Of a DNA stretch of 43,039 nucleotides, positions 1,991 through 42,953 are shown in pieces. This stretch comes from Escherichia phage SM_S24, in sequence record PP920554.1. One strand, given 5' to 3'. The notes beneath the pieces are model-generated. The model was given only the letters and a program-made list of their open reading frames with translations, searched no databases and was not told the DNA's origin. Position 1 is the stretch's first letter; each line of letters starts with the position of its first letter. The translations under genes and the position numbers were made by a program.

Positions 1991-3511
1991 ATGACCGTTA
2001 ACGTTGATAACCAGCACCCACTTTATGCGCGCATCGCGCCAGAGTGGAAGATGATCCGCGATTGTGTAGCAGGGGAGCGCGCCGTGAAGGCGTGCGGCCC
2101 CTTGTACCTGCCTCATCCCGCCAGTGGCGACAATACGGACCCGAAAGCACGGGCGCGGTATAAGGCGTACAAGCAACGCGCTGTATTCCTGAACGCCACC
2201 GCCCGCACACTTAACGCGCTGTTAGGCGTTGCCTTTGCTAAACCGGTAAGTCTGGACCTTTCCGGGGCGATGGCGGACCTGATTGACGACGTAGACGGTA
2301 GCGGTATGCCGCTACCGCAACTCCTGCGCGGTGCTATGTCTGAAGTTCTGCAATCAGGCCGTGCGGGCTTTATGGTCGACTACGACCGCCAGGCGCATTT
2401 TGATGAACTTGGTAATGTAGTGCCGCAGACAGCCGCCGAGATGGCGTCACACCGCCCGCTTATCCGCCTGTACACGGCAGAACAGATCATCAACTGGCGG
2501 CAGACCCACGGCGTCGATACGCTGATTGTGCTGAAGGAAACGGACGAAATCAGCACCGAAGACCCGGACGATTTCGCAAACCACGAAGTAACAATCTGGA
2601 CCGAGCTTCGCATGATTAACGGTGCGGCACACGCCCGCCGCTGGTTTTACAACGCTGACACGTCCGAAGTGCAAATGGACTTGCCGCGTGGATTCACCCG
2701 CACCGACCTTGTTCCGCTGGTGGATGCTGCCGGTCGTGCGCTTACTCAACTTCCGTTTTGCTGGTGTGGCGCGGTGGACAACAACGCAACGCCTGACGCC
2801 GCTCCGCTGGCGGATATCGCATCCATCAACATTAAGCACTACAACGCCGAAGCGGACGTCGCCGAGATTGCGCACATTGTGGGCCAGCCGACCCTTGTTG
2901 CTACGGGCCTGACTCAATCATGGGCAGACAAAAACCTGAAGGGTGGCATTGCTCTCGGCGCGACTAAGGGCGTTATCCTGGGCCAGAACATGGACGCTAA
3001 ACTTATTCAGGCCGAGGAGCGCAACTTGTCTGTCGCTCTTTGTGAGCGCCGCGAATTGCAAATGGCTAAACTGGGCGCGGCCCTGGTCGAGAAGGGGACC
3101 GCACCTAAGACGGCAACCGAGGCGGCCTATGATGCACAGACTGATAACAGTATCCTGTCACTGATTGCCGGTAACGTCGAGAAGGCTTTCAACCGTGCGC
3201 TGCAAATCGTCAAGCTGTTCACGGGCGACACCGCAGATCAACGCGTAACGCTGAATAAGTTCTACACCGAAATCTCGGTTGACGCACAGCTTATGACCGC
3301 AATGATGGCGGGTGTGCAGACCGGTACGGTCCGTCTGGCGGACTTTATCAAGTGGATGATGGCCCAGGGCGTTATTGATGACTCGCAAACCGTCGAGCAG
3401 GTGGAAGACGAACTGCGAAATCAGAACCCATTGCCTCAAATGTCCCCGGATGCGGTAGAATCTACCGAAGAAGACCAGGGCAAGGTAGCGGACGATGGCG
3501 AGAACAATTAA
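1991..3511 (+). CDS. portal protein
   Basis: 506 aa ORF immediately after terL, RBS AAGGAAA 5 nt before the ATG; assignment by size and synteny. Confidence 0.7.
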   Translation: MTVNVDNQHPLYARIAPEWKMIRDCVAGERAVKACGPLYLPHPASGDNTDPKARARYKAYKQRAVFLNATARTLNALLGVAFAKPVSLDLSGAMADLIDDVDGSGMPLPQLLRGAMSEVLQSGRAGFMVDYDRQAHFDELGNVVPQTAAEMASHRPLIRLYTAEQIINWRQTHGVDTLIVLKETDEISTEDPDDFANHEVTIWTELRMINGAAHARRWFYNADTSEVQMDLPRGFTRTDLVPLVDAAGRALTQLPFCWCGAVDNNATPDAAPLADIASINIKHYNAEADVAEIAHIVGQPTLVATGLTQSWADKNLKGGIALGATKGVILGQNMDAKLIQAEERNLSVALCERRELQMAKLGAALVEKGTAPKTATEAAYDAQTDNSILSLIAGNVEKAFNRALQIVKLFTGDTADQRVTLNKFYTEISVDAQLMTAMMAGVQTGTVRLADFIKWMMAQGVIDDSQTVEQVEDELRNQNPLPQMSPDAVESTEEDQGKVADDGENN

Positions 3512-4598
3512 TCAATATATGGCGGATCGCATGATCCGCCGTCACATCTTCACCCAGCGCCTGAGCAATGACCAGGCGCGGAGGGTGCTGGCTATGTGGG
3601 AGAAGTTCCGGCCCACGTTACTGGGTAAGCTGACCGAGTTACTTGATGGCAAAAAGTCCATGAATAACAAAGCACTTACCACACTGTTAACGCAACTCGA
3701 CAAGACCGTCAAAACGGAACTGCGCACCGAGTTTAAGGCGTTGGCTGAAAGCCTTCAGGAGTTCGCCGACACCGAGGCTGATTATCTCGCCGACACATTA
3801 ACGGCAGCGATCCAGCCGGTGGTCGCCGTACCTGCGGTCGAGGTGGTTGGTGTAGTGACCGGTGCGCAGATCGCAGCGACGGCTATGAAAAACCCGTTCC
3901 AAGGTAATACTATGATGCAATGGCCTGACTCACTTTCTGAGTGGACCAGGACGCAGATCGGTAACCAGGTGCGAGCGGGATTCATCCAGGGCAAGCCAAC
4001 GATGGAAATTATCGCGGACGTGAGGCGCGCGCTAGGCGGTCGTAGTGCGCAAGCTATCTCGAGCGTTGTTAAGTCCGCAGTCAACCACTATGCGGCGACA
4101 GCCCGCGAATTAATGGTAAAAGCTAATGACGATATTCTCGAAGGTCGCCAATGGTTATCTACATTGGACACGCATACTTCTCCCATGTGCCAGCTACGCG
4201 ATCGCCTGTTTTATCCGGTTGATGTTACTCCCGACACCAAAGGAAAGCGCGGCGGGAAAGTGGTGGCTGGGTCACAATATGGCGCTGGTCCGGGCAAGCT
4301 GCATTATTGCTGCCGGTCGACGGAGACGTGGAAAGTTAAGGGCATGGAAGATTGGCCCAGTGGTAAGCGTCCGGCACTGAAGGCTGACGCGGGTAGATTG
4401 CTGAGTGAGCAGGTAGACGCGCAGACTGATTTCTTCTCATGGGTGCAGCGCCAGCCGCGCCATATCCTGGAAGAACTATACGGAGTGCAACGCGCCGACC
4501 AGATTATGCGCGGCGTGAAAGTGCCGAAGATGTTCACCGATTCAGGTGAACTGATGACTATCGCACAGCTTAAAAACCGGGGGTTATGGCGTGATTAA
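3495..4598 (+). CDS. head morphogenesis / minor capsid protein (SPP1 gp7 / Mu F-like position)
   Basis: 367 aa ORF overlapping the portal 3' end; synteny terL-portal-morphogenesis; alternative ATG at 3519. Confidence 0.5.
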   Translation: MARTINQYMADRMIRRHIFTQRLSNDQARRVLAMWEKFRPTLLGKLTELLDGKKSMNNKALTTLLTQLDKTVKTELRTEFKALAESLQEFADTEADYLADTLTAAIQPVVAVPAVEVVGVVTGAQIAATAMKNPFQGNTMMQWPDSLSEWTRTQIGNQVRAGFIQGKPTMEIIADVRRALGGRSAQAISSVVKSAVNHYAATARELMVKANDDILEGRQWLSTLDTHTSPMCQLRDRLFYPVDVTPDTKGKRGGKVVAGSQYGAGPGKLHYCCRSTETWKVKGMEDWPSGKRPALKADAGRLLSEQVDAQTDFFSWVQRQPRHILEELYGVQRADQIMRGVKVPKMFTDSGELMTIAQLKNRGLWRD

Positions 4599-4920
4599 AT
4601 ATGCATCGATTGGACTGGTTATCGGTCTGGCGGTAGGATTCTGGCTAGGTGACTCCTATCGCGCTGGCGTAGTGGCGGAGGCGGCGCAAGAAGCGCAAGC
4701 CAAAGCCCAACGGCAGCAAACTAAAGTTGTGGAGCGCTCCGTGCAGGCCGAACAGGCCCGCGACGTGGAATACCGGACTATCACGAAAGAGGTTGTTAAA
4801 TATGTTACGCGCCCTAACCGCCCTGATTGTAGTTTTGATGCTGAGCGCGTGCGGATCAAGCAACGCGCCGTTGATGCCGCTAACGGAGTCGGCACTGCGA
4901 CCGCCGTGCAAGTTCGATAG
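4591..4920 (+). CDS. i-spanin (Rz-like)
   Basis: 109 aa, GTG start with GGGGG RBS; N-terminal TM helix SIGLVIGLAVGFWLG then Ala/Gln-rich helical region; contains the embedded lipoprotein gene in the +1 frame. Confidence 0.6.
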   Translation: MIKYASIGLVIGLAVGFWLGDSYRAGVVAEAAQEAQAKAQRQQTKVVERSVQAEQARDVEYRTITKEVVKYVTRPNRPDCSFDAERVRIKQRAVDAANGVGTATAVQVR

Positions 4921-5032
4921 CCCGTCCGCAGACCCCGACGAGGATTTGATGATTGACGTGAAAAATATGGAATGCGGGGCGAAGCTAAGGGCGCAGGTGC
5001 TGGAGTTGCAGCAAATAATTAAGGGGCCGTAA
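4802..5032 (+). CDS. o-spanin (Rz1-like) outer-membrane lipoprotein
   Basis: 76 aa from ATG 4802 (RBS AAGAGG); signal peptide MLRALTALIVVLMLSAC with lipobox LSAC, Pro-rich mature part; starts inside Rz in another frame and runs past its stop (overlapped architecture). Confidence 0.65.
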   Translation: MLRALTALIVVLMLSACGSSNAPLMPLTESALRPPCKFDSPSADPDEDLMIDVKNMECGAKLRAQVLELQQIIKGP

Positions 5033-5573
5033 TGGCCCCTTTTTCGTTAGCGCGGAATACCGCACGGCAGCGTGGCTTATAGATCGGCAGCGATTTTCCG
5101 TCCTCGTCCACTTCACACACTGAAGCCAACATAACTGTCTCGAACCCCGGAACGATATCGCCGAGATCAGGCGAGAGCTTATTCATATATTTCTCTTCCC
5201 AGTATCCGCGATGTACGCGGTATTGGCGACCGTCACCGCTCAAGGACAAGATGCGAACATTGCCGCCTGCGTTGATTTCAAAGGTGGCGTCGTAAACGCT
5301 GCCGATACCCTTCGGGCGATCTGTGTCATAGCGATATGTTGCCTTGTTGGTGTATACGCTGACGCTGTACATCTGCGACTGGTCGTCGCGGATTGCCTTG
5401 ATATGCTCGCGGAGCGCTGCGAACGTGCGAATGCCTTCCGGCATACAGTCAAGCGTGATTGCGTACGCCAGATCGCGTGAGTCCATCATGATTTGTTTGG
5501 CTTCGGTTGCGATTTCGTGGTCGCGCAGGATGTTAGCCAGAATCTGATTTTTAATGACTTTAGTAAGTCTCAT
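5019..5573 (-). CDS. hypothetical protein (reverse-strand moron in head module)
   Basis: 184 aa from ATG at 5573 (RBS GAGGA, 7-nt spacer); the longer track ORF 5019..6020 is an N-terminal extension antisense to the scaffold gene; own promoter-like boxes upstream and terminator hairpin at its 3' end. Confidence 0.55.
   Translation of the reverse strand: MRLTKVIKNQILANILRDHEIATEAKQIMMDSRDLAYAITLDCMPEGIRTFAALREHIKAIRDDQSQMYSVSVYTNKATYRYDTDRPKGIGSVYDATFEINAGGNVRILSLSGDGRQYRVHRGYWEEKYMNKLSPDLGDIVPGFETVMLASVCEVDEDGKSLPIYKPRCRAVFRANEKGAITAP
5023..5044. terminator. bidirectional intrinsic terminator between Rz1 and the reverse-strand moron
   Basis: GGGGCC-GTAAT-GGCCCC followed by TTTTT; overlaps the last codons of both convergent genes. 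Confidence 0.6.
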
Positions 5574-5602
5574 TTTTGTGTCCTCGTTGTTGGTGTGCAA
5601 CC

Positions 5603-5631
5603 AATATATGCAACCAATACACGGATTGCAA
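5603..5631 (-). promoter_or_regulatory. sigma70-like promoter for the head-module moron, overlapping TGCAACCAAT boxes
   Basis: minus strand reads TTGCAA-17 nt-TATATT; spacer holds ATTGGTTGCA and a second copy lies just downstream. Confidence 0.45.
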
Positions 5632-5721
5632 GCTAATTTTGCGATTATTTTTATCGCTGATAATATTAGAAGCGTGAAGTCGAGCGGGTGGCCTGCTCTG
5701 CCACAATCCCAGGGGGATAGC

Positions 5722-6426
5722 ATGAAACTTACTAAAGCAGAATATGACGCGTTGCCGGAAGGTATGAAGGCGCTTTTTGTTGCCGATGGCGACGGGTATA
5801 AATCAACATTCATGACCGCCGAAGAAGTACAGGCGGAGATCAAGGGTCTGAAAGACAACAACGCTAAGCTGGTTAGCGAGAAGAAAGCAGAAGCTGAACG
5901 CCGCGCCGAAGCCGAGCGCCTTGCGAAAGAGAAAGAGGAAGCCGCCGCGCGCAAAAATGGCGACCTCGAAGCGATCGATAAGTCCTGGAAAGATAAGTTT
6001 GCAAAACACGAAGCAGACACATCGGGAAAAATCGAAGCCTACCGCAAGCAGATCCACGATCTCACCATCGGCAGCGCTGCCAAAGACCTGGCATCGAAGC
6101 TGTTCGGTAAGAATGCGGGCATCATGCAACGTCACGTTATGGACCGCCTGACGCTGGAAGACGGCGAAGACGGCAGCTTGAAAGTGCGTGTATTGCAGGA
6201 TGGCAAACCGTCCGCGCTGACTATGGAAGAGCTTGAAAAAGAGTTCCGTAATAACGCCGATTTTGCATCCGTCCTGGCTGGCACGCCAGCCGGTGGCGCA
6301 CCTAGCAAACCGACGCAGGTTGTCGAAGATGTGAAGTCGAAAATCACTATGGGCCACAGCTTCGGTATCACTGACCTTACGAAACAGGCAGGTGAAATCA
6401 TCGCTAAGATGGGCGACGACGAGTAA
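5722..6426 (+). CDS. scaffolding protein
   Basis: 234 aa from ATG 5722 (RBS AGGGGG); charged Ala/Glu/Lys-rich helical sequence (EKKAEAERRAEAERLAKEKEEAAARK); directly upstream of the major capsid gene. Confidence 0.6.
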   Translation: MKLTKAEYDALPEGMKALFVADGDGYKSTFMTAEEVQAEIKGLKDNNAKLVSEKKAEAERRAEAERLAKEKEEAAARKNGDLEAIDKSWKDKFAKHEADTSGKIEAYRKQIHDLTIGSAAKDLASKLFGKNAGIMQRHVMDRLTLEDGEDGSLKVRVLQDGKPSALTMEELEKEFRNNADFASVLAGTPAGGAPSKPTQVVEDVKSKITMGHSFGITDLTKQAGEIIAKMGDDE

Positions 6427-6523
6427 GCAGATTGCCCGCGAAAGCGGGCAATTTTGCGAGCGCGTAAATCTAAGGTAACATTAACGTCACTGGGCGAATG
6501 CTCACAACTCAAAGGATTTCGAT

Positions 6524-21413: not shown

Positions 21414-21437
21414 AAAGCCCCGAAAGGGGCTTATTTG
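21414..21437. terminator. hairpin at the convergent junction of tail gene and lipoprotein gene
   Basis: AGCCCC-GAAA-GGGGCT followed by TATTT on the plus strand; T-rich on the minus strand too. Confidence 0.5.
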
Positions 21438-21649
21438 CAGGTTGTGCTTTTGAAGTGGTCGACCGACACATACTGGAAGTTGAATGGGTATCCCGCCCGT
21501 AACATTTTATGACCGCTAACGTCTGCAACCCCAAACACAGGGACGGAATACTCCACGCCACTATTCATGTATGTCGCGTCGCAGACTTTAGTCGGCATGT
21601 TGGCACAACCCGACAAAAGAACCCCACAAATCATAATTAAAGTTTTCAT
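21431..21649 (-). CDS. small lipoprotein, candidate superinfection-exclusion protein (Llp/Cor-like)
   Basis: 72 aa from ATG 21649 (RBS AGGAG, 8-nt spacer); signal peptide MKTLIMICGVLLSGC with lipobox LSGC; reverse orientation between tail fiber genes. Confidence 0.5.
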   Translation of the reverse strand: MKTLIMICGVLLSGCANMPTKVCDATYMNSGVEYSVPVFGVADVSGHKMLRAGYPFNFQYVSVDHFKSTTCK

Positions 21650-39354: not shown

Positions 39355-39923
39355 AATTACTATTCCGCCGTAAAGCAGATGGCTACCTAATGCGGCCGAT
39401 CCAGGCCCTTGCTACATGCGTGCGCTTGCGCCATGTACACAGCGGACTTGAGTGCCTGGCAGATACGGTTCACCTACCGGCAAACTTTGACGTACTCACA
39501 CATGATATTGAGCGCGGCGATGTTCTGCGTGACATTCGCGACGGGCAGCTATGGATCGTGGAACGCACCTACCGGAACGGCCTGCGTATGCAGACCCGCA
39601 AGGGCGGCGTAGTGGGTAACGTTCAGAGGGGTATGACTTACTTCGGCCTTGTCAACTACGAACGAGTGGGCCGCAAATACTGCCTACGCAACCGCCAGCC
39701 TCATGACCGCGTTGAGTTCCGCAAGTCGCAGCCCGCCTATGCCACCTACGACGCCCACCAGGTGCAGGCGAGGATGAAACGCACCGCGCACGAAATCGTC
39801 AATCGCTTTGATGCCGTGACAAACGCACAGCGCCGTGCGCAGGAATACGGCGTTGGATTCATCCGGGTGGAACGAGACGGCAGCATGAAGGCCATCGACC
39901 CGCGCTCGGTGATTCTGAAATGA
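39351..39923 (+). CDS. hypothetical protein
   Basis: 190 aa, RBS GAGGAG; no motif recognised. Confidence 0.45.
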   Translation: MKLLFRRKADGYLMRPIQALATCVRLRHVHSGLECLADTVHLPANFDVLTHDIERGDVLRDIRDGQLWIVERTYRNGLRMQTRKGGVVGNVQRGMTYFGLVNYERVGRKYCLRNRQPHDRVEFRKSQPAYATYDAHQVQARMKRTAHEIVNRFDAVTNAQRRAQEYGVGFIRVERDGSMKAIDPRSVILK

Positions 39924-40060
39924 GTGCGACGATCCGCGATATGCTTCAGCATAACCGCTTTGAGATAGGCGGTCGGGTATTTCGCAATTACTTCGTGGCG
40001 CGGGCATGGGCGCGCCATATTGGCAAACCAGAGGGGGCAATACGATGCTACACGATTTGA
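39920..40060 (+). CDS. hypothetical small protein
   Basis: 46 aa, ATGA coupling with the upstream gene; hand-translated, below the track cutoff. Confidence 0.25.
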   Translation: MSATIRDMLQHNRFEIGGRVFRNYFVARAWARHIGKPEGAIRCYTI

Positions 40061-40332
40061 TATATTGGTTTGGATTGGGGTGCGCGACACTCTTTGCCAC
40101 GGTGCTGGCGCTGTTGGTATGGGTGTTCCTGATTTGGCCCGCGGTGGAGGCAGCCAGCATTACCCGCATGACGTTCCAGATATACAAGCGCCGTGGCATC
40201 ACTGAGCACCCTACCAGGTTGCGCATGTGGTGGCTATGGTATCGGGATATGATAGGGGGCCGGATGTTCGAGGCCGTCCGATCGGAAGGGTGGGAGTGGA
40301 AAGGCGTCGGCAAGTGGTCCATTTTCGATTAA
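40045..40332 (+). CDS. small membrane protein (hypothetical)
   Basis: 95 aa from ATG 40045 (RBS GAGGGGG); hydrophobic helix LGCATLFATVLALLVWVFLIW. Confidence 0.35.
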   Translation: MLHDLIYWFGLGCATLFATVLALLVWVFLIWPAVEAASITRMTFQIYKRRGITEHPTRLRMWWLWYRDMIGGRMFEAVRSEGWEWKGVGKWSIFD

Positions 40333-40343
40333 TTATGCAAGCG

Positions 40344-40352
40344 TGATATAGT
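40344..40352 (+). promoter_or_regulatory. extended -10-like element (TGaTATAGT) inside the 5' arm of the pre-holin hairpin
   Basis: TG, one nt, TATAGT; a transcript started here would begin within the hairpin stem. Confidence 0.3.
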
Positions 40353-40384
40353 CCCAGTGAGCTAAAACTTACTGGGACTTTTTT
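40350..40384 (+). terminator. intrinsic terminator hairpin immediately upstream of the holin start codon
   Basis: AGTCCCAGTGAG-CTAAAA-CTTACTGGGACT followed by TTTTTT; the T-run ends at the holin ATG. Confidence 0.6.
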
Positions 40385-40675
40385 ATGGATAAGCTAAACG
40401 AGTGGTTATTTGCCCTCGCATGTCTGGCTGGCGGCTTCGTAGGCGCACGCATTCATGGCGAGGCTACGAAAGGGCCGCTAAACTTCGTTTTATATATCGT
40501 AGTTGGCTTCCTGTGTGCCATATTTGGTGCGCCAGCTATCGCCGAGTGGGCGGGCTTATCTGGCGAGCGCACTGTCGCCGGTTTGGGCTTCGTAACTGCA
40601 ATCTTCTGGATGCCAATAGCCGCCCGGATCAGGGGGACTATTGAGTCGTTCCGACTTCCGGGGGGCGCAAAATGA
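40385..40675 (+). CDS. holin (putative)
   Basis: 96 aa with two to three hydrophobic segments; immediately upstream of the endolysin gene and preceded by a terminator hairpin. Confidence 0.5.
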   Translation: MDKLNEWLFALACLAGGFVGARIHGEATKGPLNFVLYIVVGFLCAIFGAPAIAEWAGLSGERTVAGLGFVTAIFWMPIAARIRGTIESFRLPGGAK

Positions 40676-40917
40676 GTATCACCGTCCTTTTGTTTGTTAT
40701 CATCGGGGCTTCGTCCCTGTTTAACGTGTATGCGCCGTCCGTTCAGGATGGCTTCTTCGGTCGGGTGTTATATCTGCTTACGGCGATGGTCTGCATTATC
40801 GGACTGTTGCAAACCGGAGACGTATCTGACGCCACCTGGACCGCGTTAATCTGGTTGTTTGCATTGCGCACGCTGCGTAATGCTGTTCTAAATGGGGTAA
40901 AACATGCGATTCAGTGA
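40672..40917 (+). CDS. holin/antiholin-like small membrane protein
   Basis: 81 aa with two hydrophobic helices; overlaps both the upstream holin and the endolysin start. Confidence 0.4.
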   Translation: MSITVLLFVIIGASSLFNVYAPSVQDGFFGRVLYLLTAMVCIIGLLQTGDVSDATWTALIWLFALRTLRNAVLNGVKHAIQ

Positions 40918-41395
40918 CAACGGTCTAAGATTTACGGCAGCATGGGAGCAATTCAGCCCAGTGCCGTATTTTGCGACTAAGAAAGAGCAGGCACGCGGCC
41001 TGTACACCTGGGGCTATGGGCACACCGGCACTAATCCGCCGCGGAGCATTACCCGTGCGGAAGCACTGGAGCTACTCAAGCGCGACGTGGCGTATGCCGA
41101 AAACTGGGTGAACAAGTACGCACACCCGAGCATCAATCAGGCGCAATTCGACGCGCTGGTGGACCTGGTTATCAATGCCGGTCCAGGTCCGATCATGCCG
41201 GACAACATCGCCAACGACTTTGACGACGCGGTGCGCCTGGGTGACTGGGCGAAGGTCCGTGCGACTCTGCCGCAGTTCCGCAAGCAAGGCGGGGAAGTGC
41301 TGAAAGGGCTGGTCCGTCGAGCAATCGGCAGGCAGGCGCTATTCGATGGTAAGCAGTGGGACGTTGCCGAGAAAATCGGTCGTAACGCAGCATAA
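40904..41395 (+). CDS. endolysin, lysozyme-like (GH24-type)
   Basis: 163 aa; TAAWEQF...GLYTWGYGHTG signature resembling T4/lambda-type lysozymes; lysis-cassette position. Confidence 0.8.
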   Translation: MRFSDNGLRFTAAWEQFSPVPYFATKKEQARGLYTWGYGHTGTNPPRSITRAEALELLKRDVAYAENWVNKYAHPSINQAQFDALVDLVINAGPGPIMPDNIANDFDDAVRLGDWAKVRATLPQFRKQGGEVLKGLVRRAIGRQALFDGKQWDVAEKIGRNAA

Positions 41396-41411
41396 TACGA
41401 GGTAACACAGT

Positions 41412-41573
41412 ATGCTAAAAAGTATTCTTGATCATAATGCCGACGCGCTCGCCGCGCTGGCTAAAACCGAAGACCCAGGCGCACGCGCCATTATCGCGGA
41501 CACTATCAGTCACGCTGGCGTCTTTGACGCGAAGCTGCCGAGTCCGCCACCGCCCGCAGAGCCAGAAGAGTAA
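41412..41573 (+). CDS. hypothetical small protein
   Basis: 53 aa (MLKSILDHNADALAALAKTEDPGARAIIADTISHAGVFDAKLPSPPPPAEPEE), followed by an intrinsic terminator. Confidence 0.3.
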   Translation: MLKSILDHNADALAALAKTEDPGARAIIADTISHAGVFDAKLPSPPPPAEPEE

Positions 41574-41578
41574 ACCAC

Positions 41579-41604
41579 AAGCCCGGTTAATTCCGGGCTT
41601 TTTA
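41579..41604 (+). terminator. intrinsic terminator after the lysis cassette
   Basis: AGCCCGG-TTAATT-CCGGGCT followed by TTTTAT. Confidence 0.6.
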
Positions 41605-41608
41605 TTGC

Positions 41609-41638
41609 TTGACTTGCAACCAATTAATAGCTCATACT
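41609..41638 (+). promoter_or_regulatory. promoter-like element upstream of the leader-like peptide and HTH-phosphoesterase gene
   Basis: TTGACT then TGCAACCAAT in the spacer, -10-like CATACT, second TGCGACCAAT downstream. Confidence 0.4.
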
Positions 41639-41668
41639 GCGACCAATCAACGAGAGGAGTAATACACT

Positions 41669-41749
41669 ATGGCACGTAATGATATTTGGGTATTGGCAAT
41701 CTGGTCAGCCGCGGGATTTATCGGTATGGTTATTTGCGAATTGATATAG
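41669..41749 (+). CDS. hydrophobic mini-ORF (leader-like peptide)
   Basis: 26 aa (MARNDIWVLAIWSAAGFIGMVICELI) with RBS AGGAG 9 nt upstream, followed by a perfect 9-bp hairpin; may be regulatory rather than a stable protein. Confidence 0.2.
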   Translation: MARNDIWVLAIWSAAGFIGMVICELI

Positions 41750-41810
41750 CCCGCCGCCATACGGACCGTGGTATATTGTCCACGGTCCACTAATCAGGAA
41801 TTAATTAAAT

Positions 41811-42953
41811 ATGCACCCGCAAACTAAAATTACCGATGAGCAATTGATCGCAGAAATTCAGGCAGGGACTACGGTTAAAGATATTGCGAAGAAATACGGG
41901 ATTGCCCTACGCAATGTTTATATGCGGAAAGCCCGCCTGTCGAAAAAAGGCATTGGACACGGCAACGATGCCGTAATACGCAAGCGCGTTGCCGATGGGT
42001 TTGGGGTTAAGCGCGTATCGGCCCTGGTGCGCGGCAATGGCGAAGAGGTCATGTCGTGGGTCATCACTGAGCAGGACAAAGAGCGCCAACTCGAAGCCAT
42101 GCGCGCTGTTGTCGAGGGTATGAACAGCGAAATCACACCGGCAGCGCCAGTAAAAGCCCCGCCAGTACCGATCCAGGCGCTAGACTTGCTCAACCTGTAC
42201 ACCGTGTCAGACTTCCACCTGGGCATGTTGGCATGGGGCGAGGAGACTGGCGAAGACTGGGATATGGCGATCGCCGAAGACCTGTTCTACCGCTGGTTTG
42301 TCGAAGCCTTCGCACGCGCCCCGGACGCAGGCACTGCCGTGATCAATATCCTCGGCGATATGGCGCACTTTGATAGCCTTGATGCCGTCACACCGGCAAG
42401 CGGTCACGTATTGGACGCCGACACCCGATACCAGAAGTTAGTCCGCTACATGATCCGCATGGTGCGCAACGTGGTAGACCTAGCGCTGCAAAAACACCAC
42501 AAAGTCAAACTGCTAATCGTCCAGGGTAATCATGACGAGTCAGGCATGATTTGGCTTGCTGAGATGTTCAACACGCTGTACGAGAACGAGCCGCGCGTCG
42601 ATGTGGATACGTCCCCGGACGTCTACAAAATGGTGCAGCACGGTAAGACCACGCTATTCTTCCACCACGGGCACAAAGCGCGCTTCGATGCTATCGAAAC
42701 CGTCATGATTTCTAAATTCAGACAGGCGTTCGGGTCGAGCGAATACAGCTACGCGCATGTCGGTCACTTGCACCACCAGAAGATTGTTGAATCCCGCAAC
42801 ATGATTGTTGAACAGCACCGGACCCTCGCAGCGAAAGACGCATATGCCAGCCGTGGTGGTTGGATGTCCGGTCGCAGTGCCAACGTAATCACCTATAGCG
42901 CCAACTACGGCGAAGTGGCGCGCTTAACCATTAGCCCGGAAATGTTGAAGTAA
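41811..42953 (+). CDS. HTH domain + calcineurin-like metallophosphoesterase (SbcD/Mre11-like motif set)
   Basis: 380 aa; N-terminal HTH-like TVKDIAKKYGIALRNVYMRK; motifs SDFHLG, GDMAHFD, QGNHDE, FHHGH, GHLHHQ in the canonical metallophosphoesterase order. Confidence 0.55.
   Translation: MHPQTKITDEQLIAEIQAGTTVKDIAKKYGIALRNVYMRKARLSKKGIGHGNDAVIRKRVADGFGVKRVSALVRGNGEEVMSWVITEQDKERQLEAMRAVVEGMNSEITPAAPVKAPPVPIQALDLLNLYTVSDFHLGMLAWGEETGEDWDMAIAEDLFYRWFVEAFARAPDAGTAVINILGDMAHFDSLDAVTPASGHVLDADTRYQKLVRYMIRMVRNVVDLALQKHHKVKLLIVQGNHDESGMIWLAEMFNTLYENEPRVDVDTSPDVYKMVQHGKTTLFFHHGHKARFDAIETVMISKFRQAFGSSEYSYAHVGHLHHQKIVESRNMIVEQHRTLAAKDAYASRGGWMSGRSANVITYSANYGEVARLTISPEMLK

Follow-up and report, generated by a model that had tools for sequence, protein, structure and literature searches.

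Two overlapping reading frames lie between the head-morphogenesis and scaffold genes of Escherichia phage SM_S24, and they raise the question of whether this phage keeps its spanins within the head module, apart from its holin and endolysin genes. The window, by which we mean the whole stretch of DNA analysed (43,039 bp), begins with the terminase genes and ends with the lysis genes and an exonuclease-like gene, and from this layout we regard it as a complete Dhillonvirus (HK578-like) genome. When the region 3400-6500 was compared by megablast with 50,697 phage records, 158 records matched, and query coverage was at least 80% in 150 of them. Identity was 90-99% in 154 records and 80-90% in the remaining four. 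Almost all of these relatives are Dhillonvirus phages of Escherichia or Shigella, among them HK578, JL1, EP23, YD-2008.s and Over9000. The genes for the terminase subunits, the portal and head morphogenesis precede the two frames, and those for the scaffold and the major head protein follow them. The features of the locus are given below.

3495-4598: head-morphogenesis gene
4579-4583, plus strand: GGGGG, Shine-Dalgarno of the i-spanin gene, assigned from the sequence 5' of the GTG
4591-4920, plus strand: predicted i-spanin gene, GTG start, 330 nt, 109 aa, assigned from the open reading frame and hydropathy
4787-4792, plus strand: AAGAGG, Shine-Dalgarno of the o-spanin gene, 9 nt before the ATG
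4802-4920, plus strand: 119 nt read in two frames, as the i-spanin C-terminus and as the o-spanin signal peptide and N-terminal linker
4802-5032, plus strand: predicted o-spanin gene, ATG start, +1 frame, 231 nt, 76 aa
5021-5041: G+C-rich hairpin AAGGGGCC-GTA-GGCCCCTT followed by TTTTCG, from a consensus scan
minus strand: nmad5 gene, converging on the 3' end of the o-spanin gene
5722-6426: scaffold gene

A sequence-only reading of this DNA had proposed that 4591-4920 encodes a type II membrane protein, that 4802-5032 encodes an out-of-frame lipoprotein with the lipobox LSAC, and that the two form an overlapped pair between the head-morphogenesis and scaffold genes. All of these points agree with our results. 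The coordinates of the two flanking genes place the pair between them. The two frames share 119 nt, the second frame is +1 relative to the first, and it extends 112 nt beyond the end of the i-spanin gene.

Judged by its sequence, the product of 4591-4920 is a type II inner-membrane protein, the i-spanin, with one predicted N-terminal transmembrane helix. Its N-terminus reads MIKYASIGLVIGLAVGFWLGDSYR. Residues ~2-20 form its only hydrophobic stretch (IKYASIGLVIGLAVGFWLG; Kyte-Doolittle 15-residue maximum 2.15), with Lys3 on the N-terminal side, and the remaining 89 residues are polar. The periplasmic domain has a single cysteine, Cys80, which is invariant in Dhillonvirus, and a second allele of the gene within this genus encodes a 102-aa i-spanin with the end NRVGL. 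The string agcttaaaaaccGGGGGttatggc, given as the Shine-Dalgarno region of HK578, JL1 and EP23 in the supplement of Kongari 2018 (PMC6139136), is the same here. The head-morphogenesis gene ends in a stop codon that the GTG start overlaps (GTGATTAA, 4591-4598), and this overlap suggests translational coupling of the two genes. A single-sequence AlphaFold2 model of low confidence (mean pLDDT 58.9, pTM 0.18) has helices at residues 5-72 and 84-97 with a break at 73-83, and so hints weakly at a helix-linker-helix layout. For the i-spanins of the short Jersey subfamily, Kongari 2018 predicted two helices and one beta element in the linker, and the supplementary coiled-coil table of the same study lists 0 predicted segments for the 109-aa i-spanins of HK578, JL1 and EP23 (PMC6139136). 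Coiled-coil details of the lambda type may therefore not transfer to this protein.

The +1 frame at 4802-5032 has the features expected of a small lipoprotein, the o-spanin, whose N-terminus reads MLRALTALIVVLMLSACGSS. Specifically, the signal peptide MLRALTALIVVLMLSAC contains Arg3, a hydrophobic core and the lipobox L-S-A-C, with Cys17 as the lipid cysteine. The lipobox was called by pattern match and conservation; its cysteine is kept in 25 of 25 related loci. Cys17 is followed by Gly at +2 and Ser at +3, so that there is no Asp at +2 as a signal for inner-membrane retention, and with Gly there instead the lipoprotein is predicted to be sorted to the outer membrane. The mature protein would have 60 aa including Cys36, Cys58 and 7 prolines. 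A scan of both strands of the window with a loose lipobox pattern found four distinct candidates: two are antisense inside large genes, one belongs to a Cor-like exclusion lipoprotein (21431-21649; phrog_1119, 1.9e-27) and one is the frame at 4802, the only one of the four with a type II membrane protein as its partner. As for the start codon, an upstream TTG at 4793 was considered and rejected: in 9 of 19 relatives the frame is closed by a stop codon after the TTG and before ATG 4802, which leaves ATG 4802 as the start.

The hairpin at 5021-5041 begins within the last o-spanin codons and has a 9-pair stem with 6 G-C pairs. With its T-run it is terminator-like and faces the converging nmad5 gene. 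It should be read as a consensus match only, since the region has no excess of such sites over shuffled sequences. A feature named 'terminator' lies beneath the o-spanin match in two relatives.

Whether both frames of the overlap are used was examined in a comparative set of 25 loci, 20 of them from Dhillonvirus (GenBank and IMG/VR) and five more distantly related. The 442-nt segment of the 20 Dhillonvirus loci and the window aligned with zero gaps, at 84-100% identity, and comprised 19 distinct sequences. Among these 19, the numbers of variable sites at codon positions 1/2/3 were 15/8/35 in the part that only the i-spanin uses and 9/2/22 in the part that only the o-spanin uses; the latter sites counted in the i-spanin frame give 22/9/2, a pattern at odds with coding. 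Within the overlap, counts were 13/3/12 in the i-spanin frame. The most constrained position there is the second of the i-spanin codon and the first of the o-spanin codon, where 3 of 40 sites vary. Changes in the overlap of the closer relatives are synonymous for the i-spanin and mostly exchange one hydrophobic residue for another in the o-spanin signal peptide. No frameshift or premature stop was found in either frame in the 19 sequences, and ATG 4802, its Shine-Dalgarno sequence and the lipobox cysteine are invariant in 19 of 19. On this pattern of variation, both frames are coding and under purifying selection in the 19 Dhillonvirus sequences. The more distant o-spanin relatives, with 30-46% identity, come from Jerseyvirus, Kagunavirus and two IMG/VR viral contigs. 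They keep the ATG and a lipobox (LSGC, LNGC, LSAC or LCSC), two further cysteines (in PPCK and EC) and a D(E/S)DEDL motif.

Both proteins match known spanin profiles. The i-spanin matches phrog_2536 'Rz-like spanin' (9.7e-37), and the o-spanin matches two profiles of the same name, phrog_5672 (4e-26, residues 32-76) and phrog_1267 (7.1e-12, residues 4-74). Homologues of each partner were found by tblastn in ~650 phage records, mostly of Salmonella and Escherichia siphophages. The i-spanin is 98.2% identical to that of JL1, 98.1% to EK99P-1, 94.5% to HK578 and 94.4% to EP23, and it is one residue apart (Ser6 for Ala6) from the JL1 sequence in the Kongari supplement. Among the 20 Dhillonvirus loci, identity of the o-spanin is 91-100% for 14 and 75-82% for six; it is 97% to the copy on a 43,741-bp IMG/VR sequence and 43-46% to the proteins of Ent3 and K1ind1. 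Kongari 2018 assembled overlapped i- and o-spanins of this kind into the 'Jersey' family of 27 members, which include HK578, JL1, EP23, EK99P-1, SSL-2009a and SO-1, with a shorter subfamily 'EP23 to SO-1' and two constant o-spanin cysteines (PMC6139136). The supplement of that work places the i- and o-spanin genes at 4569-4899 and 4780-5011 in HK578 and at 4624-4954 and 4835-5066 in EP23; for HK578, JL1 and EP23 it gives 330 and 231 nt, 109 and 76 aa, a mature o-spanin of 60 aa and an overlap of 119 nt (PMC6139136). In the BASEL phages PaulFeyerabend and GeorgBuechner, an i-spanin and a full-length 231-nt o-spanin are annotated at the same place with the help of the Kongari database. Each defining feature of a two-component spanin (as defined by Summer et al. 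2007 and Kongari et al. 2018) that can be read from sequence is found here, apart from a largely alpha-helical periplasmic domain of the i-spanin, on which there is the low-confidence model described above. It is thus very probable that the pair is the two-component spanin of Dhillonvirus, a member of the overlapped 'Jersey' family. The spanin function itself we infer from topology, synteny and curation; in the papers searched we found no Jersey-family spanin that had been tested by experiment.

The second part of the question concerns the position of the pair. The genes with which it would act are at the other end of the window.

40385-41395, plus strand: holin-holin-endolysin cassette (40385-40675, 40672-40917 and 40904-41395)

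The three products match phrog_2359 holin (2.8e-31), phrog_2508 holin (2.3e-26) and phrog_7 endolysin (1.5e-36), and the endolysin also matches Pfam family PF00959 Phage_lysozyme (8.7e-21), which assigns it to the lysozyme family. If the map is circular, 6,234 bp across the genome ends separate the end of the endolysin gene from the start of the i-spanin gene, in keeping with the earlier estimate of about 6-7 kb from a cassette at 40385-41395. A second or unimolecular spanin beside the endolysin was sought among all open reading frames (30 aa or longer) within 39900-41900, as well as in the lipobox scan of the whole window, and none was found. The frame next after the endolysin gene (41412-41573) encodes a conserved soluble 53-aa protein with neither a transmembrane helix nor a lipobox. 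The order head morphogenesis, spanin pair, scaffold recurs in every Dhillonvirus locus examined, in the Jerseyviruses Ent3 and YMFM0293 and in the Kagunavirus K1ind1, which has an inserted Hoc-like gene ahead of the pair. In a Dhillonvirus paper, the lysis system is taken to include an Rz-like spanin that several genes separate from the holins and endolysin, and separation of the spanins from the holin and endolysin genes is already in print for the related phage Schulenberg (PMC6763661). The earlier statement that detached spanins are known agrees with Schulenberg (PMC6763661) and T4. The arrangement is not peculiar to this genome, being conserved in three genera. The position in the head block could itself be functional, setting the dose or timing of the spanins independently of the holin-endolysin cassette. 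This idea would fit the overlap of the i-spanin start with the preceding stop codon, the hairpin closing the unit and the conservation of position in three genera; we consider it rather unlikely, though not far-fetched.

Two other readings of the locus have to be weighed against that of a spanin pair. According to one of them only the membrane protein is real, and the +1 frame is either untranslated or gives a 52-aa soluble peptide from ATG 4874 without a lipid anchor. Such a start is used in GenBank records: in those inspected, the o-spanin is called from an internal ATG of the 4874 type, with a length of 159 or 144 nt, in YD-2008.s, BMA1, Over9000, Gluttony, vB_SenS-Ent3 and YMFM0293, and the phrog_5672 profile likewise spans residues 32-76 only. 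Wrong or missing o-spanin starts are, however, a common annotation error according to Kongari 2018 (PMC6139136), and phrog_1267 matches residues 4-74. The excess of variable third positions in the +1 frame (9/2/22) shows that this frame is translated, and this is also our finding on the possibility, raised beforehand as one that would count against a spanin pair, that the lipoprotein frame is not translated. We rejected ATG 4874 as the start: the signal peptide and lipobox are conserved upstream of it, with ATG 4802, AAGAGG and the lipobox cysteine invariant in 19 of 19 sequences. Substitutions 5' of 4874 are mostly hydrophobic exchanges (A/V, V/A, M/T, L/M), as a signal peptide would show, and the distant relatives with 30-46% identity align from residue 1-5 with the lipobox kept. 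On this sequence evidence the correct o-spanin start here is ATG 4802, and the reading with a single real protein has very little left to recommend it; we regard it as the least probable of all.

The other reading accepts both proteins and makes them a membrane-associated accessory of head assembly or of superinfection exclusion, which would explain their place in the head module. The location between the head-morphogenesis and scaffold genes in three genera and the overlap of the i-spanin start with the head-morphogenesis stop codon are in its favour, as is the fact that the lysis role of the pair is a prediction. On the other hand, a Cor-like exclusion lipoprotein is already encoded at 21431-21649, and without this pair the genome would have no spanin at all. 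The combination of a type II membrane protein, an overlapped outer-membrane lipoprotein and conserved periplasmic cysteines is the spanin signature of Kongari 2018 (PMC6139136), and the pseT.3/pseT.2 genes of T4 are a precedent for spanin genes that are unlinked to holin and endolysin. We therefore find an accessory role highly improbable, by a slight degree less so than the reading with a single protein, and retain the spanin pair.

The sequence-only reading had also held that such a pair is easily missed by annotation, and public records bear this out: in many of them the o-spanin is shortened, or one of the two partners has no name or no annotation at all. A call from an internal ATG, as in the six records named above, costs the o-spanin its signal peptide and lipobox. 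Among the records inspected, one partner is hypothetical or unannotated in Over9000, SECphi18 and SM_W22. Kongari 2018 counted 64 o-spanins with wrong starts and 196 that were unannotated, and flagged this class of error as frequent (PMC6139136).

By analogy with lambda Rz/Rz1, the i-spanin and o-spanin would be made late, together with the head proteins. The i-spanin would be placed in the inner membrane and the o-spanin in the outer membrane, and their C-terminal regions would bind across the periplasm. Each could form disulfide-held homodimers, the i-spanin through Cys80 and the o-spanin through Cys36 and Cys58; these periplasmic cysteines, suitable for homotypic disulfides, are present and invariant in Dhillonvirus. 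The complex would stay trapped in the peptidoglycan meshwork for as long as this is intact; after its destruction by the holins and lysozyme encoded at 40385-41395, the freed spanins would fuse the inner and outer membranes, removing the last barrier to phage release. The lambda paradigm behind this scheme is summarised in PMC6139136. Most likely, judging by this analogy, the phage uses the pair to break the host outer membrane at lysis.

It is important to note that the pair, its geometry and its position among head genes were catalogued in 2018 for close relatives (PMC6139136) and are thus already known, which makes the locus an ordinary feature of these phages. Since the literature and several curated genome records already contain the pair, the overlap and the detachment, there is little discovery value here. 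The practical value is in annotation, namely in the correction of o-spanin starts and of unnamed partners.

When compared with known systems, the pair resembles lambda Rz/Rz1 in combining a type II inner-membrane protein with a small proline-containing outer-membrane lipoprotein in the +1 frame. Both systems have periplasmic cysteines for intermolecular disulfides and are presumed to complete lysis once holin and endolysin have acted. In lambda, however, the whole of Rz1 is embedded in Rz, and both directly follow the endolysin gene R. The i-spanin described here is also shorter, with 109 aa as compared to 153 aa in lambda Rz. At E <= 0.1 there were zero matches to Pfam-A families for either the i-spanin or the o-spanin, including PF03245 and PF06085, which we take to be the models for lambda Rz and Rz1. 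The Pfam comparison thus gives no support for sequence homology to lambda Rz/Rz1, and the earlier label 'Rz/Rz1-type' holds for the architecture and the presumed mechanism only.

With pseT.3/pseT.2 of T4 the pair shares a detached spanin locus. The T4 genes differ in their 'separated' architecture, their unrelated family and their neighbourhood, and in T4 the holin and endolysin genes are unlinked as well. The spanins of the E. coli siphophage Schulenberg, which its published genome description likens to Guernseyvirinae, similarly lie apart from the holin and endolysin genes in a different phage lineage (PMC6763661). The nearest counterparts are HK578, JL1 and EP23 of the short Jersey subfamily, which have the same geometry, the same genomic position, the same two o-spanin cysteines and essentially the same proteins, so that nothing of substance distinguishes the pair described here from theirs.

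Annotation of the spanin pair is faulty across the public records inspected, which include the related-phage loci L001, L002, L003, L005, L022, L023, L024 and L025. In the records of YD-2008.s, BMA1, Over9000, Gluttony, Ent3 and YMFM0293 the o-spanin is called from an internal ATG, equivalent to position 4874 of the window, as a gene of 159 or 144 nt, and the signal peptide and lipobox are thereby lost. Moreover, the i-spanin of YMFM0293 is mislabelled 'putative o-spanin', the SECphi18 record lacks an i-spanin call and that of SM_W22 lacks an o-spanin call.

Comparison of the window i-spanin (4591-4920) with loci L004, L018 and L021-L024 revealed two alleles in Dhillonvirus, one of 109 aa ending in NGVGTATAVQVR and one of 102 aa ending in NRVGL. 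The 102-aa allele is paired with a distinct o-spanin linker, SVYRPPCTFENAS in place of SALRPPCKFDSPS. Such co-occurrence is expected because the two genes share DNA.

Two features lie downstream of the spanin pair:

5019-5573, minus strand: Nmad5 gene (PF18757, nucleotide modification associated domain 5; profile match)
5574-5721: variable slot from nmad5 to the scaffold gene, compared with L003 3913-4406 and L023 3510-4225

The nmad5 gene converges on the o-spanin gene, and its stop codon (5019-5021) is located within the o-spanin 3' end. Its product is C-terminally truncated in the window. Specifically, the window protein covers positions 1-121 of 206 in the PF18757 profile (9.6e-26) and the 254-aa Over9000 homologue covers positions 1-206 (1.3e-60). 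The two proteins are 97% identical across residues 1-176, after which the window protein has 8 novel residues and then a stop. The deletion amounts to about 230-240 bp, and its junction is absent from all 50,697 phage records searched. It has been reported that Dhillonvirus phages escaped the Tmn defence system through nmad5 mutations (PMC11846954). If the truncation is natural, it could therefore be a Tmn-escape allele; alternatively, it could be an assembly error. The content of the adjacent slot differs among the Dhillonvirus genomes compared. An additional gene on the minus strand, coding for 109-122 aa, is present in Over9000, YD-2008.s and BMA1. SM_W22 has an unrelated 172-aa minus-strand gene with an internal duplication, and the window, PaulFeyerabend and Gluttony lack any extra gene there.

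Three further genes were considered, one past the tail genes and two flanking the holin-endolysin cassette:

21431-21649, minus strand: 72-aa lipoprotein (MKTLIMICGVLLSGC...), phrog_1119, 1.9e-27
40006-40332, plus strand: product of 108 aa containing a hydrophobic segment (LIYWFGLGCATLFATVLALLVWVFLIWPAV), phrog_2531
41412-41573, plus strand: conserved 53-aa ORF, phrog_11068, 7.7e-38

The lipoprotein, encoded directly past the tail genes, matches the Cor superinfection-exclusion family (phrog_1119). Immediately 5' of the two holin genes, the 40006-40332 gene might be part of the lysis cassette, e.g. as a regulator; its product has no Pfam match, and phrog_2531, like phrog_11068, is a family without assigned function. 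Neither a transmembrane helix nor a lipobox was found in the 53-aa product. This ORF lies directly 3' of the endolysin gene, the position expected for a spanin gene if the cassette were lambda-like.
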